This document shows positions 19,238 to 49,196 of a stretch of 64,000 nt of DNA, one piece after another. Under the pieces are notes generated by a model. It saw only the letters and a program-made list of their open reading frames with translations, was not told the DNA's origin and searched no databases. The DNA lies in the NCBI RefSeq assembly GCF_024502345.1, contig NZ_JALDNN010000001.1, one strand, 5' to 3'. The translations under genes were made by a program, and so were the position numbers. This DNA is from Escherichia coli. Lineage in GTDB: Bacteria > Pseudomonadota > Gammaproteobacteria > Enterobacterales > Enterobacteriaceae. Within the stretch, counting starts at the first letter, position 1. Each line of letters starts with the position of its first letter.

Positions 19238-19259
19238 ACTCTGGAGTCGACTCCAGAGT
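19238..19259 (-). promoter_or_regulatory. ZntR (MerR-type) operator in the zntA promoter
   Basis: Perfect 22-bp palindrome ACTCTGGAGTCGACTCCAGAGT 43 bp upstream of the zntA start, between -35-like and -10-like elements. Confidence 0.8.
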
Positions 19260-23570: not shown

Positions 23571-24621
23571 GCGCGATGCAATCAATCATATTCGGCAGTT
23601 TGGTGGGCGTCTGGATCGCTTCCGTAAATCGGTCGGCGGCTCAGGCGACGGCGGTCGTAACGCACCGAAACGCGCGAAATCCTCGCCAAAACCGGTAAAT
23701 CGCAAAACCAACGTTTTCAACGAACAGGTGCGCTATGCCTTCCACGGCGCATTGCAGGATCTGAAAAGCAAACCGTTCGCCACGTTTTTAACGGTGATGG
23801 TTATCGCCATCTCCCTGACGCTGCCCAGCGTCTGTTATATGGTGTACAAAAACGTTAATCAGGCGGCGACGCAGTATTATCCGTCACCGCAAATCACTGT
23901 TTACTTGCAAAAAACGCTGGACGATGACGCCGCTGCGGGCGTGGTGGCACAGTTGCAGGCCGAGCAAGGCGTGGAGAAAGTGAACTATCTTTCTCGTGAA
24001 GACGCACTGGGCGAGTTCCGTAACTGGTCTGGTTTTGGTGGTGCGCTGGATATGCTGGAAGAAAACCCGCTTCCGGCAGTGGCGGTGGTGATCCCGAAAC
24101 TCGATTTTCAGGGGACGGAATCACTCAATACGCTGCGTGATCGTATCACGCAGATTAACGGCATTGACGAAGTGCGGATGGATGACAGCTGGTTTGCCCG
24201 TCTGGCGGCGTTGACCGGGCTGGTCGGGCGCGTTTCGGCGATGATCGGCGTGTTGATGGTGGCGGCAGTGTTCCTCGTCATCGGCAACAGCGTACGTCTG
24301 AGCATCTTTGCTCGCCGTGACTCCATCAACGTGCAGAAACTGATTGGTGCGACGGATGGTTTCATCCTTCGCCCGTTCCTGTATGGTGGCGCACTGCTGG
24401 GATTTTCTGGCGCATTGTTGTCATTAATTTTGTCAGAAATTCTGGTGCTGCGATTGTCATCGGCGGTTGCGGAAGTGGCACAGGTTTTCGGAACGAAGTT
24501 TGATATCAATGGTTTATCGTTCGATGAATGCCTGCTATTGCTGCTGGTATGCTCGATGATTGGCTGGGTGGCAGCGTGGCTTGCCACGGTACAACATTTA
24601 CGCCACTTTACGCCTGAATAA
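23563..24621 (+). CDS. ftsX: Cell-division ABC permease-like protein FtsX
   Basis: Track ORF starts at 23536; ATG at 23563 (MNKRDAINH...) overlapping the ftsE stop gives 352 aa. Confidence 0.92.
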
Positions 24622-40577: not shown

Positions 40578-40614
40578 GGTTAGCGGCCCTCTTCGTGGGA
40601 AGAGGGCTATTTTG

Positions 40615-41843: not shown

Positions 41844-43018
41844 TTTGTGTGGTCCATAATATTTTTCATGGGAGGATAAATTGAGCCAGATGGAATGGCC
41901 CAGGGAGTGATTTTGCTTTCACCTACTAATATTCCCTTAGCTATTCGTGATTGCATGTTAGTAAAAACTTTATGATATGGTTCGTTTTCGATTAATACTA
42001 AATTTTCGAAATCATTAGTACCACCATCATCTAGAGATAGTTTATGGTGAACATTATAATTTAGAGGAGCATTGCCCTTTCTCATTCTTAAAAGGTCTTC
42101 GGCGTTGAATCTTCCAGATGCTTCGGAGGTTTTTGCAAGTTTGATAAGAAAATTTTTTCTTACAGTTTTATTAAACTCCTTTCGTAAGTTAGCTAAGTCT
42201 TTTGAAGGTCTCTTAATGTATATTATTTCTATTATGTCTATACCATCAAGAAGTTTTTGTTGACCTCTAAGTTTGCCTAAGTAACTATTTATTTCTGTAT
42301 ATGTATCAACATTAGAACGCTTTGTTAAAAGAATAGATGCTGTTGCTATCGCTATGCCCGCTGTTTTTTCATTTAGTATTTGATCATAGCCTTTTATTGC
42401 ATCTCCACCCAGTTTTTCCGCAGTATCTCTGAATCCTTCAATGTTCCCATTGTATACGCCACCAGCAGCAAGTAGCCTGCCAATAGCTTTGCTGTTTAAC
42501 GTTTTGAAACGATTATTTGTTTGGTTTTTTGAATTTGGTAAAAACAAACGGTTATAATTTTCAGGGAGTGCCAAATAGCTGAACTCGGTATTTGCGATAA
42601 GATGTTGACAGAGGATAAATTCATAACTAATAGTTATTGTTTCTGTATCCAGTTGGTTTTCAATGATCTGGTGATGAATAGCCGATAAAAAAGCGCCTCT
42701 TAGTTGTATATAATAATACTTTTCCAATCTACCAAATCTATTTATTCGATAGAAGTCAAATCCCATAAATAATTGTTCATTATTGTTAATGGAATTAATA
42801 AATAATGGAGTGCTTTTATCAATTAATTTACAAAATGTTATACCATGGAACTGTGAACCAAGCCCCGTATTATTAATATTATTTAAGAGTGAGAATGTAA
42901 ATATTTCATCCTCATGCCCGCTCTGCCAACGATTACCTGTAGACTCAGAAGTCCCACAACCTGCGGAGATGCTTCCTTGTTGTTCTCCCGTTACTGTCAG
43001 GTAAACAATATTACTCAT
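41840..43018 (-). CDS. yhhZ: YhhZ, Hcp-like N-terminal domain fused to a C-terminal HNH-type nuclease domain
   Basis: 392 aa; N-terminal VYLTVTGEQQGSI... Hcp-like pattern; C-terminal NYNVHHKLSLDDGGTNDFENLVLIENEPYH HNH motif; low-GC sequence. Confidence 0.85.
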   Translation of the reverse strand: MSNIVYLTVTGEQQGSISAGCGTSESTGNRWQSGHEDEIFTFSLLNNINNTGLGSQFHGITFCKLIDKSTPLFINSINNNEQLFMGFDFYRINRFGRLEKYYYIQLRGAFLSAIHHQIIENQLDTETITISYEFILCQHLIANTEFSYLALPENYNRLFLPNSKNQTNNRFKTLNSKAIGRLLAAGGVYNGNIEGFRDTAEKLGGDAIKGYDQILNEKTAGIAIATASILLTKRSNVDTYTEINSYLGKLRGQQKLLDGIDIIEIIYIKRPSKDLANLRKEFNKTVRKNFLIKLAKTSEASGRFNAEDLLRMRKGNAPLNYNVHHKLSLDDGGTNDFENLVLIENEPYHKVFTNMQSRIAKGILVGESKITPWAIPSGSIYPPMKNIMDHTK

Positions 43019-43250
43019 CCCTGAAAAGTCCTTTTATGGCATGCTATTTTATCAATGGCAATATTATGCTTGTTAATTGTTATTTATTTACTCCAGGAAA
43101 TTGTAGGCGTATATATTAAAAAAATATTACACTTTAGGAAGTAATTATGAGTTAAATCTCAATATATGTATTGGGCAAATAAATACCTTAAAGGAAGGTA
43201 TGTCGATTTTGAATGACACCCTTTTTCCATCTCAGAAAAAGGGCACTATC

Positions 43251-43739
43251 TTACTTCACCCGCGCCATATAATATGCATCGACATATTCACCATTACGCA
43301 ATGCGTACTTCTTACCAGTCCCTTCAATTTCAAAGCCGTATTTTTTATAGACCTTAATTGCCGGGGCGTTATCGACAAACACGGTTAGTTCAATGCGATC
43401 TACCCGCAACCAGTTGTCGCACATTTCAATCATCTCTCGCATCAGGGCGCTGGCGACGCCGCGGTTCTTCCAACGAGAGTCGACACAGATACCAAAATCG
43501 GCAACATGACTGCGGCGTGGGCGCTGTTGCACGTCAATGGTGAGATGGCCCACGACGTCTCCATCAATACAGGCGACGAGTTGCTTGATGCCGGGACGAT
43601 CGGCGAGTCGCTCCTGCCACATATGATCGGAAGGATGAGGCACCTGTAGTGTGTTGCAATACACCTCCGGCTGGGCGTGAATCTGCCTGATGGCCTCGTA
43701 ATCCCGTGTTTCTGCGTGGCGTATTACTATCTCACTCAT
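43251..43739 (-). CDS. yhhY: GNAT-family N-acetyltransferase YhhY
   Basis: Track ORF 43251..43817; internal ATG at 43739 (MSEIVIRHAETRDY...) gives 162 aa. Confidence 0.88.
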   Translation of the reverse strand: MSEIVIRHAETRDYEAIRQIHAQPEVYCNTLQVPHPSDHMWQERLADRPGIKQLVACIDGDVVGHLTIDVQQRPRRSHVADFGICVDSRWKNRGVASALMREMIEMCDNWLRVDRIELTVFVDNAPAIKVYKKYGFEIEGTGKKYALRNGEYVDAYYMARVK

Positions 43740-43833
43740 TCCTTTGTCCTCTTTGGGGTAAATGTCCCTTTCAACATCATTGACTTTCAAATGCGAGTCA
43801 AATGCATTTTTTTGCAAAAAGTGTTGGACAAGT

Positions 43834-43856
43834 GCGAATGAGAATGATTATTATTG
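43834..43856 (+). promoter_or_regulatory. Fur box overlapping the ryhB promoter
   Basis: GCGAATGAGAATGATTATTATTG resembles the Fur consensus GATAATGATAATCATTATC; lies immediately upstream of the RyhB 5' end. Confidence 0.8.
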
Positions 43857-43860
43857 TCTC

Positions 43861-43955
43861 GCGATCAGGAAGACCCTCGCGGAGAACCTGAAAGCACGAC
43901 ATTGCTCACATTGCTTCCAGTATTACTTAGCCAGCCGGGTGCTGGCTTTTTTTTT
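43861..43955 (+). ncRNA. ryhB: Fur-regulated small RNA RyhB
   Basis: GCGATCAGGAAGACCCTCGCGGAGAACCTGAAAGCACGACATTGCTCACATTGCTTCCAGTATTACTTAGCCAGCCGGGTGCTGGCTTTTTTTTT matches recalled RyhB, including the terminator hairpin and poly-U; sits between yhhY and yhhX as in K-12. Confidence 0.92.
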
Positions 43956-44071
43956 GATCTTTCGTTCTCAATTTATCCACGGGAGTGCTTGTGTTCGTTA
44001 TGCGCACTCCAGTAGGAACCACGTCCGCTTTGCGCTAAGGTGTAAATAACCACCTTAAAAAGGACGAAATC

Positions 44072-45109
44072 ATGGTCATCAACTGCGCCTTTATTGGCTT
44101 CGGCAAAAGCACCACCCGTTACCATCTGCCGTATGTACTTAACCGCAAGGATAGCTGGCATGTCGCGCATATTTTTCGTCGCCATGCGAAGCCGGAAGAA
44201 CAGGCTCCCATTTATTCCCATATCCATTTCACCAGCGATCTCGACGAAGTACTAAACGATCCCGATGTTAAGCTGGTTGTTGTCTGCACCCACGCGGACA
44301 GCCATTTCGAGTACGCGAAACGCGCGCTGGAAGCCGGGAAAAATGTGCTGGTCGAAAAACCGTTCACTCCGACACTTGCGCAGGCGAAAGAGCTGTTTGC
44401 ACTGGCGAAAAGCAAAGGGCTGACCGTCACGCCATATCAGAATCGTCGCTTTGATTCCTGCTTCCTGACGGCGAAAAAAGCGATTGAAAGCGGCAAGCTG
44501 GGAGAGATTGTCGAAGTGGAAAGCCATTTTGACTATTACCGCCCGGTGGCAGAAACCAAACCTGGACTGCCGCAGGATGGCGCGTTCTATGGCCTTGGTG
44601 TGCATACGATGGACCAGATTATTTCTCTGTTCGGTCGCCCGGATCACGTCGCTTATGACATCCGCAGCCTGCGTAATACAGCCAATCCTGACGACACCTT
44701 TGAAGCGCAACTGTTTTATGGCGACCTGAAAGCCATCGTCAAAACCAGCCATCTGGTGAAAATCGATTATCCGAAATTTATCGTTCACGGTAAGAAAGGT
44801 TCGTTTATTAAATACGGTATCGACCAGCAGGAAACCAGCCTGAAGGCTAATATTATGCCGGGCGAACCGGGATTCGCAGCGGATGATTCGGTCGGTGTGC
44901 TGGAGTATGTCAATGACGAGGGCGTGACGGTCAGAGAAGAGATGAAGCCGGAGATGGGCGATTACGGGCGCGTTTATGATGCGTTGTATCAAACCATCAC
45001 CCACGGTGCGCCAAATTACGTCAAGGAATCTGAAGTTCTTACCAATCTGGAAATCTTTGAACGCGGATTTGAGCAAGCCTCTCCCTCCACAGTAACTCTC
45101 GCTAAGTAA
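44072..45109 (+). CDS. yhhX: Gfo/Idh/MocA-family oxidoreductase YhhX
   Basis: 345 aa; N-terminal Rossmann motif (AFIGFGKS); matches K-12 YhhX. Confidence 0.92.
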   Translation: MVINCAFIGFGKSTTRYHLPYVLNRKDSWHVAHIFRRHAKPEEQAPIYSHIHFTSDLDEVLNDPDVKLVVVCTHADSHFEYAKRALEAGKNVLVEKPFTPTLAQAKELFALAKSKGLTVTPYQNRRFDSCFLTAKKAIESGKLGEIVEVESHFDYYRPVAETKPGLPQDGAFYGLGVHTMDQIISLFGRPDHVAYDIRSLRNTANPDDTFEAQLFYGDLKAIVKTSHLVKIDYPKFIVHGKKGSFIKYGIDQQETSLKANIMPGEPGFAADDSVGVLEYVNDEGVTVREEMKPEMGDYGRVYDALYQTITHGAPNYVKESEVLTNLEIFERGFEQASPSTVTLAK

Positions 45110-45231
45110 GTTTGATGGCCCCTCGAATAGTTCAATTTTTTTGAACAGAGGGGTCAATTTTCACCCTCTATCATCCCAGGCAGATCGGGTCCACACTAAG
45201 CCCATCGAAATCATTCAGGGGGCGAATACAA

Positions 45232-45927
45232 ATGATCTACTTACGCAAAGCAAATGAACGTGGTCATGCAAATCATGGCTGGCTGGACTCCTGGCATACT
45301 TTCTCTTTTGCCAACTATTACGATCCGAACTTTATGGGCTTCTCCGCGCTGCGCGTGATTAACGACGACGTGATTGAAGCAGGGCAGGGCTTCGGCACTC
45401 ACCCGCATAAAGATATGGAAATTTTGACCTACGTGCTGGAAGGTACTGTTGAGCATCAGGACAGCATGGGCAATAAAGAGCAGGTTCCGGCGGGTGAGTT
45501 CCAGATTATGAGTGCGGGTACGGGTATTCGTCACTCAGAGTACAACCCAAACAGCACCGAGCGTCTGCATCTGTATCAGATCTGGATCATGCCTGAAGAA
45601 AATGGCATTACGCCGCGTTATGAACAGCGTCGCTTCGATGCCGTGCAGGGCAAACAGCTGGTGCTCTCGCCGGATGCGCGAGATGGTTCGCTGAAAGTGC
45701 ATCAGGATATGGAACTGTATCGTTGGGCGTTGCTGAAAGATGAGCAGTCGGTGCATCAGATTGCCGCTGAACGCCGCGTCTGGATCCAGGTGGTGAAAGG
45801 CAATGTCACCATTAACAGCGTGAAAGCCTCGACCAGCGATGGTCTGGCAATCTGGGATGAGCAGGCAATTTCCATCCATGCGGATAGCGACAGCGAAGTG
45901 TTACTGTTCGATCTGCCGCCGGTTTAA
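45232..45927 (+). CDS. yhhW: Pirin-like quercetin 2,3-dioxygenase YhhW
   Basis: 231 aa; cupin metal-ligand histidines (HPH...E...H); matches K-12 YhhW. Confidence 0.92.
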   Translation: MIYLRKANERGHANHGWLDSWHTFSFANYYDPNFMGFSALRVINDDVIEAGQGFGTHPHKDMEILTYVLEGTVEHQDSMGNKEQVPAGEFQIMSAGTGIRHSEYNPNSTERLHLYQIWIMPEENGITPRYEQRRFDAVQGKQLVLSPDARDGSLKVHQDMELYRWALLKDEQSVHQIAAERRVWIQVVKGNVTINSVKASTSDGLAIWDEQAISIHADSDSEVLLFDLPPV

Positions 45928-46150
45928 AGCTCCACGGCATTTTTGAAGCCTGCCTTTTTGCAGGCTTCCTCGCTCGCTCCGGTCGCGTGCTGATGCACGC
46001 TTCCGGGGTTTTGCCGCGTCGTTAGCACAATGCGATGCAATTGATTTAGTGTATATCTAATAATTGTAAACAAGCACTGTTTTCCCCGGGAAGGTTCTGA
46101 TGCGTCCGTGTTAAACTAAGAGAATCTATCTCTTTTGTACCTTCAGGACG

Positions 46151-47146
46151 ATGAAAAAGAAAAGACCCGTACTTCAGGATGTGGCTGACCGTGTAGGCGT
46201 GACCAAAATGACGGTCAGCCGTTTTTTACGCAACCCGGAGCAGGTTTCCGTCGCTCTACGCGGCAAGATTGCCGCCGCTCTTGATGAACTGGGCTATATT
46301 CCCAATCGTGCGCCCGATATCCTCTCTAACGCTACCAGCCGGGCGATTGGCGTCCTGTTACCTTCTCTCACCAACCAGGTTTTCGCGGAAGTATTACGCG
46401 GAATCGAAAGCGTCACCGACGCGCACGGTTATCAAACCATGCTGGCGCACTACGGTTATAAACCGGAAATGGAGCAAGAACGCCTCGAATCCATGCTCTC
46501 ATGGAATATCGATGGACTGATCCTCACCGAACGTACCCACACGCCGCGCACCTTAAAGATGATTGAAGTGGCGGGGATCCCGGTGGTGGAACTCATGGAC
46601 AGCCAGTCGCCGTGCCTCGATATCGCCGTCGGTTTTGATAACTTTGAAGCGGCACGCCAGATGACCACCGCCATTATTGCTCGCGGGCATTGCCACATTG
46701 CCTATCTCGGCGCGCGTCTCGACGAACGTACTATCATCAAACAGAAGGGATACGAACAGGCGATGCTGGATGCAGGTCTGGTGCCGTATAGCGTGATGGT
46801 TGAGCAATCTTCTTCTTACTCTTCCGGTATTGAACTGATTCGCCAGGCGCGGCGGGAATATCCGCAGCTGGATGGCGTGTTCTGTACCAACGATGACCTG
46901 GCGGTCGGCGCGGCGTTTGAATGTCAGCGTCTGGGATTGAAGGTTCCTGACGATATGGCGATTGCCGGTTTCCACGGTCATGACATTGGCCAGGTGATGG
47001 AGCCGCGGTTAGCGAGCGTGCTGACGCCGCGTGAGCGGATGGGCAGTATTGGCGCTGAACGCCTGCTGGCGCGTATTCGTGGCGAATCTGTGACACCGAA
47101 AATGTTAGATTTAGGTTTCACCTTGTCACCGGGCGGATCTATTTAA
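46151..47146 (+). CDS. gntR: Gluconate repressor GntR (LacI family)
   Basis: 331 aa; N-terminal HTH (VTKMTVSRFL) and periplasmic-binding-fold effector domain. Confidence 0.95.
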   Translation: MKKKRPVLQDVADRVGVTKMTVSRFLRNPEQVSVALRGKIAAALDELGYIPNRAPDILSNATSRAIGVLLPSLTNQVFAEVLRGIESVTDAHGYQTMLAHYGYKPEMEQERLESMLSWNIDGLILTERTHTPRTLKMIEVAGIPVVELMDSQSPCLDIAVGFDNFEAARQMTTAIIARGHCHIAYLGARLDERTIIKQKGYEQAMLDAGLVPYSVMVEQSSSYSSGIELIRQARREYPQLDGVFCTNDDLAVGAAFECQRLGLKVPDDMAIAGFHGHDIGQVMEPRLASVLTPRERMGSIGAERLLARIRGESVTPKMLDLGFTLSPGGSI

Positions 47147-47224
47147 GCCTACAAATTTGAAGTAGCTCACACTTATACACTTAAGGCACGGATGGATATT
47201 GCTTCTGATATTGTCCGGCTGGAC

Positions 47225-47256
47225 AATGTTACCGATAACAGTTACCCGTAACATTT
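47225..47256 (+). promoter_or_regulatory. Two adjacent GntR operator sites in the gntK promoter
   Basis: AATGTTACCGATAACA and AGTTACCCGTAACATT, each a near-palindromic GntR box. Confidence 0.75.
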
Positions 47257-47284
47257 TTAATTCTTGTATTGTGGGGGCACCACT

Positions 47285-47812
47285 TTGAGCACGACTAACC
47301 ATGATCACCACATTTACGTCTTGATGGGCGTATCGGGCAGCGGCAAATCTGCGGTCGCCAGTGAAGTGGCGCATCAACTTCATGCCGCGTTTCTTGATGG
47401 CGATTTCCTCCATCCACGGCGCAATATCGAAAAAATGGCGTCTGGCGAACCGCTGAATGATGACGATCGCAAACCGTGGCTGCAGGCGCTGAACGACGCC
47501 GCGTTTGCTATGCAGCGCACCAATAAAGTGTCGCTGATCGTCTGTTCTGCACTGAAAAAGCACTATCGCGACTTGCTGCGTGAAGGTAATCCGAATCTCT
47601 CTTTCATCTACCTGAAAGGCGATTTTGATGTGATTGAAAGTCGCTTGAAAGCGCGCAAAGGCCATTTCTTTAAAACCCAAATGTTGGTGACGCAGTTTGA
47701 AACGCTGCAGGAGCCGGGTGCGGACGAAACCGATGTGCTGGTGGTGGATATCGATCAACCGCTGGAAGGTGTTGTGGCAAGCACCATTGAGGTTATTAAA
47801 AAAGGCAAATAA
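47285..47812 (+). CDS. gntK: Thermoresistant gluconokinase GntK
   Basis: Track ORF starts at 47264; start chosen at the TTG at 47285 (LSTTNHDHH... read as M) giving 175 aa; P-loop GVSGSGKS. Confidence 0.88.
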   Translation: MSTTNHDHHIYVLMGVSGSGKSAVASEVAHQLHAAFLDGDFLHPRRNIEKMASGEPLNDDDRKPWLQALNDAAFAMQRTNKVSLIVCSALKKHYRDLLREGNPNLSFIYLKGDFDVIESRLKARKGHFFKTQMLVTQFETLQEPGADETDVLVVDIDQPLEGVVASTIEVIKKGK

Positions 47813-49165: not shown

Positions 49166-49196
49166 CCCGGTAGTTGTGACACTACCGGGTTCTTTT
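49166..49196. terminator. Rho-independent terminator between convergent gntU and yhgN
   Basis: CCCGGTAG-ttgtgaca-CTACCGGG stem-loop followed by TTCTTTT. Confidence 0.75.

Follow-up and report, generated by a model that had tools for sequence, protein, structure and literature searches.

The yhhW gene of Escherichia coli is followed by two stable hairpins, and the question that this locus raises is whether they are signals dedicated to the end of the yhhW transcript or have some other origin. On the + strand of the window (the whole 64-kb stretch of DNA that was analysed) the gene order is ryhB, yhhX, yhhW, gntR, gntK, gntU, and both hairpins lie inside the yhhW-gntR spacer, which is 223 nt long in the window. 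Among database matches to the query, E. coli E2865 was the best, with 100% identity, and K-12 was 98% identical. The yhhW stop codon ends at 45927; downstream of it a first-pass annotation had placed two hairpins, and both are present in the sequence, at 45945-45968 and 45985-46000. The genes and the hairpins are positioned as follows.

45232-45927, + strand: yhhW (quercetin 2,3-dioxygenase / pirin-like) coding sequence, from the list of open reading frames and from RefSeq-annotated E. coli loci that are identical or nearly so.
45945-45968, + strand: hairpin 1 (HP1), a perfect 9-bp stem with a 6-nt loop.
45976-46009, + strand: hairpin 2 (HP2), a 6-bp core (45985-46000) and a 7-bp outer stem, with a 2x2 internal loop between them.
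46151-47146, + strand: gntR (gluconate repressor), the downstream gene, from the list of open reading frames and RefSeq-annotated E. coli loci.

HP1 reads GAAGCCTGC-CTTTTT-GCAGGCTTC and, folded alone, is worth -15.9 kcal/mol (z -4.9). HP2 has the core GCGTGC-TGAT-GCACGC, which is extended outward by GCUCCGG/CCGGGGU around the internal loop; the extended hairpin reaches about -26 kcal/mol (-25.9; z -3.6). The 106-nt stretch from 45925 to 46030 folds at -48.9 kcal/mol with a z of -4.8, and none of 200 shuffled sequences was as good, so that the folding-energy calculation asked of this region places it beyond chance. The minus strand of the hairpin region folds equally well, which is expected of DNA palindromes. 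Perfect 9-bp stems with loops of 3-8 nt were found at seven loci in the 64-kb window, versus approximately two expected under a first-order Markov model; HP1 alone is therefore non-random, yet not extraordinary. The other six such hairpins are located at 6596-6620, 19238-19259, 24133-24153, 40586-40607, 43219-43243 and 49166-49189. The hairpin at 43219-43243 lies just past the yhhY stop codon and that at 49166-49189 just past the gntU stop codon, and because of this placement both are probably terminators.

The filled form of the spacer (223 nt) was observed in 4348 of 5426 complete E. coli genomes, while ca. 1060 others match the window only from 46087 onward. In empty E. coli alleles (JJ1886, A13) the distance between yhhW and gntR is 92 nt. 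A spacer of 90-106 nt is found in the great majority of 80 species-level genomes that encode YhhW beside GntR, and the short spacer also occurs in E. albertii and other Escherichia lineages. Judged from the short spacers of most relatives, both hairpins lie in an insertion of ca. 131 nt relative to the ancestral arrangement. The same site is filled in Citrobacter braakii (L016), Klebsiella (L020 and L023), Salmonella enterica subsp. arizonae and diarizonae (L031 and L034), the enterobacterium L071 and one other Escherichia species (L005). The homology of all these inserts to that of E. coli is evident by eye, and in their central part they resemble the ERIC core.

The insert was compared with the ERIC/IRU/RU-1 repeat family, with the 127-nt E. 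coli ERIC/RU-1 consensus and the Salmonella SeRU-1 sequence (Delihas 2007, PMC2759123, Table 1a) as references. A profile search with nhmmer, local alignment and a colinear MAFFT alignment delimit the following element.

45929-46055, + strand: 127-nt ERIC/IRU/RU-1 element, oriented like the published consensus.

The nhmmer profile, built from the two published consensus sequences only, matched 45934-46055 (+) over model positions 6-127 with an E value of 4e-4 and 15.9 bits; there was no other nhmmer match with E below 1 in the 64-kb window, and no second ERIC copy was seen there. In shuffle-controlled local alignment against the consensus, the window spacer gave a z of about 10, on the + strand only. 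With stringent scoring (match +2, mismatch -3) z is only about 3, the relationship being clearer with gentler scoring, with the profile search and with intermediates. The window copy is strongly diverged, at 53% identity to the consensus. This direct similarity is modest, and in a whole-genome search 15.9 bits would be borderline; the identification leans on the same-site intermediates. The C. braakii insert aligns with consensus positions 2-126 at 80% identity (z of about 49), the inserts of L071 and L020 give z values of about 30, and the bridging same-site copies are 70-80% identical to the consensus. Repeat-free and REP-containing spacers, compared with the consensus in the same way, give a z of about 0. 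In a MAFFT alignment, the consensus, the window copy and the same-site copies are colinear end to end.

The ends of the element were also examined. Its length is exactly that of the ERIC unit (ca. 127 bp), and the difference between the filled and the empty spacer (223 versus 92 nt) is 131 nt. The right terminus, GTGTATA, matches the GGGTATA of the consensus, and the left terminus, GCTCCACGG as compared to TATACCCGT, is degenerate; the same-site copy of S. arizonae retains TATAC...GTGTAT. Short terminal inverted repeats and a 5'-TA-3' target duplication are a trait of ERICs (PMC2229807, Table 1), and TA stands next to both ends of the window copy, in the TAA stop codon of yhhW, which ends one base ahead of the repeat, and at 46054-46055. 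On these alignments, we consider it very probable that HP1 and HP2 are parts of one decayed 127-nt copy of ERIC, a miniature inverted-repeat element, in the yhhW 3' UTR. The wider reading, a decayed ERIC copy that was imported and has a passive role, is the best explanation overall, and we put its probability at roughly 0.8, a figure that mainly reflects the identity of the element.

HP2 corresponds to consensus positions 48-81, which form the conserved central palindrome, or apex, of the repeat, and HP1 to positions 17-40, the left arm folded on itself. When the consensus, SeRU-1 and the same-site copies are compared, 89% of the cells in the HP2 helix are paired, and three pairs are changed on both sides, in the compensatory series ACTTAC/GTAAGC, GCGTAC/GTACGC, GCGTGC/GCACGC. 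HP1 is paired in 64% of cells across ERIC copies and is well formed in the Escherichia copies only. The first-pass annotation had named conservation across genomes as a check: the HP2 helix is kept, HP1 is Escherichia-specific, and the element is missing in ca. 20% of E. coli. In the fold of the consensus, as in that of the C. braakii copy, there is a single long, imperfect hairpin with the equivalent of HP2 at its tip; the minimum free energy structure of the window copy consists of local hairpins with no long arm-to-arm stem. For the window copy, the arm-to-arm duplex is worth -14.6 kcal/mol (z +0.7), and for the consensus -31.1 kcal/mol (z -4.5). The left arm folds on itself as HP1 because the right arm is too diverged to pair with it. 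We read the missing long palindrome as the decay of an old copy and, since membership rests on descent, file the element as a degenerate member of the family despite the loss of the long stem. The hairpins would thus be present through descent from a palindromic mobile element, with no signal having evolved at the site.

Compared with the ERIC family as a whole, the window copy has the same length, colinearity over positions 6-127, a central palindrome, an intergenic position in a transcribed 3' UTR, a filled/empty polymorphism, a matching right terminus and TA at or near both ends. It differs in its low identity to the consensus, in the loss of the long stem, in a left arm that makes a perfect hairpin of its own, in a degenerate left terminus, and in that it seems to have been spread by whole-allele recombination and not by transposition. 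These results also bear on the notion that the hairpins arose by chance in an ordinary intergenic spacer. While approximately two perfect 9-bp hairpins are expected per 64 kb, two adjacent stable hairpins with a z of about -4.8 are not accounted for in this way, the apex helix is conserved across genera, and the homology to a known palindromic repeat refutes the notion, to which we attach next to no credence.

The ERIC consensus was placed at 63,097 positions. These are distributed over 5425 of the 5426 E. coli genomes, and the median genome has 13 of them. RefSeq carries no annotated features under the E. coli consensus matches, and nothing is annotated in the K-12 spacer. Because ERICs are unannotated in RefSeq E. 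coli, their hairpins keep being rediscovered as possible signals; recognizing a decayed ERIC prevents such over-interpretation, and has little significance beyond annotation. The element is of a known kind: the repeat family to which it belongs as a degenerate copy was described long ago, and no bacterial genome is better studied. A search of the literature for yhhW together with ERIC or IRU found no paper. Two other identities were considered and rejected. The first, a dispersed repeat detectable by BLAST, was discarded when the 168-nt insert proved to be single-copy per genome even in the 'distant' mode; the family link is seen only through the same-site copies of other genera and the published consensus. 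The second, a REP/BIME element, was discarded for lack of similarity, and REP-like GCCGGATAAGACGC... inserts occur in Citrobacter spacers instead. REP/BIME (PU) elements do resemble the window element in being GC-rich extragenic hairpins in 3' UTRs, without U-tracts, that can stabilize the upstream mRNA against exonucleases, and inserts of the REP type are present in the yhhW-gntR spacer of several Citrobacter; the window element, however, bears no resemblance in sequence to the REP consensus; it is a member of another family, with a length of 127 nt and one copy at the locus.

To follow the history of the filled allele, it was compared with empty alleles along the flanking genes. Per 60 nt of yhhX, yhhW and gntR, filled and empty E. 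coli alleles differ at 0-5 positions, an ordinary level of divergence; only in the last 60 nt of yhhW does the number rise to 10-13. Over the last 63 nt of yhhW the filled allele departs from JJ1886 at 11 positions and from S. arizonae at 8, mostly within the final 35 nt. The divergence profile and an alignment of gene tails define a patch that accompanies the repeat.

45894-45924, + strand: 3'-end patch of yhhW, travelling with the repeat.

The patch has 9 differences in 31 nt from repeat-free E. coli and is Salmonella/Citrobacter-like, including an Ile to Val change, and not like the other Escherichia. The element seems not to have transposed recently within E. coli; same-site copies are present in some Citrobacter, Klebsiella and Salmonella. 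Given these copies elsewhere and the Salmonella/Citrobacter-like last ca. 35 nt of yhhW, the most likely way for the filled allele to have entered E. coli is homologous recombination of a cassette from about 45894 to about 46096 (ca. 200 bp), an event to which we give roughly even odds. Instead of import, an ancestral polymorphism with repeated loss is possible. If the allele was imported, it would have replaced the short ancestral spacer and destroyed a conserved hairpin in it.

That ancestral hairpin is evident in the empty spacers. Its consensus is AACCTTCCC-loop-GGGAAGGTT, often extended by GCGC/GCGC. In 62 repeat-free spacers the hairpin covaries, both partners being changed in 7 of 10 predicted pairs, and it folds at about -22 kcal/mol. 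It is directly followed by the near-invariant sequence GTCCGTG(A/G/T)TAAACT. In one example (L001, 3971-4020) the hairpin abuts the invariant GTCCGTGnTAAACT block, and there is no U-tract in Escherichia. It may be a yhhW terminator or may take part in the control of the gntR promoter. Two features of the window were defined by comparison with the repeat-free spacers, the second also with all filled alleles.

46056-46096, + strand: remnant of the ancestral yhhW-gntR spacer.
46104-46117, + strand: GTCCGTGTTAAACT block, near-invariant in Enterobacteriaceae.

In the remnant, the left arm of the ancestral hairpin is gone, with a T-rich run in its place, and the right arm, GGGAAGGTT, is kept (46088-46096). 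From its sequence, we infer that the GTCCGTGTTAAACT block is the gntR extended -10 promoter element (TGnTAAACT), which would lie downstream of the repeat and be unaltered by it.

To determine whether transcripts end at the hairpins, published K-12 Term-seq 3' ends were used (Adams 2021, PMC7815308, supplementary file 1), window position x corresponding to K-12 position 3578950-(x-45927) on the minus strand. No sense-strand 3' end was found within the element (35788xx-35789xx, minus strand) in this dataset, which is the outcome that the first-pass annotation had named as refuting its reading; this absence is weak evidence, because yhhW expression may be too low under the conditions used. A strong end at 3578650(-) lies inside gntR and was classed as ORF-internal (Adams 2021, PMC7815308). 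A terminator-like hairpin, TGACCAAAATGACGGTCA followed by GCCGTTTTTT, is located at 46200-46227 (+), 50-77 nt into the gntR coding sequence, and coincides with this end; it looks like a site of premature termination within gntR. Two further ends, 3578999(+) and 3579057(+), are antisense to the 3' part of yhhW (window positions ca. 45878 and 45820, minus strand; PMC7815308), and imply a transcript of the opposite strand through the ERIC.

The possibility of termination rests on the sequence that follows the hairpins. Downstream of HP1 stands CUCGCUCG, with no U-tract, and there the earlier statement that the hairpins lack a U-run holds. It has to be amended for HP2, whose extended stem abuts a run of four U.

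46009-46012, + strand: UUUU run directly after the extended HP2, read from the sequence; the ERIC consensus has AUUC here.

With the U4 following it, the further suggestion that the hairpins are something other than terminators is not secure for HP2. The run could be a weak intrinsic-terminator tail. In a TransTermHP-style scoring of tails, HP2 obtained -3.6 to -4.1, HP1 -2.05 and the ERIC consensus -2.5, with -7.1 for an all-U tail; a terminator scan with a stricter criterion, 5 or more T in 8, flagged neither HP1 nor HP2. HP2 shares with intrinsic (Rho-independent) terminators a GC-rich stem with U residues at once after it, and departs from them in having four U only, an internal loop and no published Term-seq 3' end; HP1 departs from them in having no U-tract.

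It could be argued that HP2 and the UUUU make up an intrinsic terminator of yhhW, which stops a fraction of transcripts, insulates the gntR promoter and replaces the ancestral hairpin. HP2, at about -26 kcal/mol, does abut the U4, its tail scores better than that of the consensus, and the ancestral hairpin stood in an equivalent place and is absent from the filled alleles. The U4 tail is short, however, and the site was left unflagged by the terminator scan; there is no Term-seq end near K-12 3578865(-), and the strong end at 3578650(-) is 215 nt downstream; and in Escherichia sp. L005 the run is U3 and the stem is broken. We regard a terminator in this full sense as rather unlikely.

ERICs are often co-transcribed at the 3' ends of genes (reviews PMC2229807, PMC3184786, PMC10969869), and, as the same reviews relate from De Gregorio 2005, Yersinia ERICs alter the stability of upstream mRNAs through an RNase E site, in an orientation-dependent manner. 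Such a precedent suggests a dedicated element of RNA stability or processing, in which the ERIC would change the decay of yhhW mRNA, for example by way of an RNase E site within the AU-rich sequence at its 3' end or by a REP-like block to exonucleases. Like the 3'-end ERICs of Yersinia enterocolitica (De Gregorio et al. 2005, as summarized in the reviews), the window copy lies in a 3' UTR, directly behind a gene whose transcript would include it, and has an AU-rich right end, which is predicted to be weakly structured at 46040-46070. Both of its hairpins are stable and, among the E. coli sampled, HP1 does not vary and the polymorphism in HP2 keeps pairing, although so few variants cannot demonstrate selection. 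In the reviews' account, on the other hand, the Yersinia effect depends on orientation and on an intact long hairpin that masks or unmasks the RNase E site, and it is this hairpin that has decayed in the window copy. No 3' end or processing site was called in the element in K-12 Term-seq, and ca. 20% of E. coli and most relatives do without the element. We consider a dedicated role of this kind unlikely. The first-pass annotation, which had suggested stability or processing elements, is supported in part: its suggestion coincides with the sole function that experiments, in Yersinia, have led others to propose for the family, and it had missed the identity of the repeat.

We return to the decayed, imported ERIC copy with a passive role. 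When yhhW is transcribed, the hairpins would become a stable, structured 3' UTR. We tentatively propose, as a function that falls short of being probable, that they act as a passive barrier to 3'-to-5' exonucleases, with HP2 and the UUUU serving as a weak, leaky intrinsic terminator. HP2 and the UUUU would in that case partly make up for the loss of the ancestral hairpin. The locus offers a natural experiment, with 80% of alleles filled and 20% empty and carrying a different conserved hairpin, and the two kinds of allele could be used to probe the effects of ERIC structure on mRNA 3' ends, or on read-through into a regulator gene.

Variation among Escherichia alleles was inspected as well. HP1 is invariant in eight sampled E. 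coli alleles, and the lone polymorphism of HP2 in these alleles (C/T) exchanges a G-C for a G-U pair, so that pairing is kept. Escherichia sp. L005 has mismatches in both hairpins (including C to A in the HP1 stem), U3 in place of the four U, and a deletion in the right arm. In E. coli CUVET19 (L089), at the equivalent of window positions 46001-46002, TT is changed to GA, and the 2x2 internal loop of HP2 becomes two Watson-Crick pairs. Templated correction of quasi-palindromes is a route at the level of DNA by which perfect stems can arise without selection. The perfect stems at this locus may have been sharpened by such correction, and the change from TT to GA in CUVET19 looks like one case of it. 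Alternatively, the perfect 9/9 stem of HP1 and its invariance in the sampled E. coli could be due to selection. An extended form of this idea is that the spacer with the ERIC is an old allele common to several species, that the cassette moved between Salmonella/Citrobacter-like lineages and E. coli and that the ERIC hairpins were then selected as a replacement terminator or insulator before the gntR promoter, HP1 having become a perfect 9/9 stem and HP2 having gained G-C pairs and the U4 tail. Taken jointly, this series of events is, in our estimate, improbable; if true, it would supply a worked case of MITE domestication, with the element taking over from an earlier 3'-end signal.

Small RNAs were also considered. 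The ryhB small RNA gene (Rfam RF00057; 83 bits, E 2.5e-15) is located at 43890-43954 (+), with yhhY on one side and yhhX on the other, which is its expected position in K-12. RyhB was the sole Rfam match in 43000-47500 at E values up to 1, and no curated model matches the element. A consensus scan found no promoter-like site in the spacer, nor a terminator consensus, and a 49-aa ORF on the minus strand (45924-46073) gave only sub-threshold Pfam noise. That the spacer contains an unrecognised small RNA or a cis-regulatory gntR leader is, as we see it, highly improbable. Both strands are structured, and the antisense transcript crosses the region; against this stand the lack of Rfam matches other than RyhB and of a promoter-like site, the position of the conserved gntR -10 block downstream of the element, and the 20% of strains in which the element is absent.

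The ERIC at yhhW-gntR is dispensable, as is indicated by the ca. 20% of E. coli that lack it and by an insertion beside it in E. coli EC0430, where an IS5-family element directly follows the ERIC (L090, 579-920). Other insertions were observed in the spacer of related genera. REP/PU-like palindromes, GCCGGATAAGACGCG...CATCCGGC, stand in place of the ancestral hairpin in Citrobacter L012-L015, L017, L026 and L033. From these independent REP/PU-like and IS5-family inserts in the same spacer, the yhhW-gntR spacer appears to be a hot spot of insertion. Spacers of 291-302 nt in L023 (K. spallanzanii), L031 (S. arizonae) and L034 (S. diarizonae) contain an ERIC together with an extra palindromic segment of ca. 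70-80 nt, for example AATGAGGGACATCC..GTCCCTCA..., whose position in S. arizonae differs from that in the other two. Nested inserts of ca. 70 bp within ERICs were reportedly described by Wilson and Sharp in 2006.
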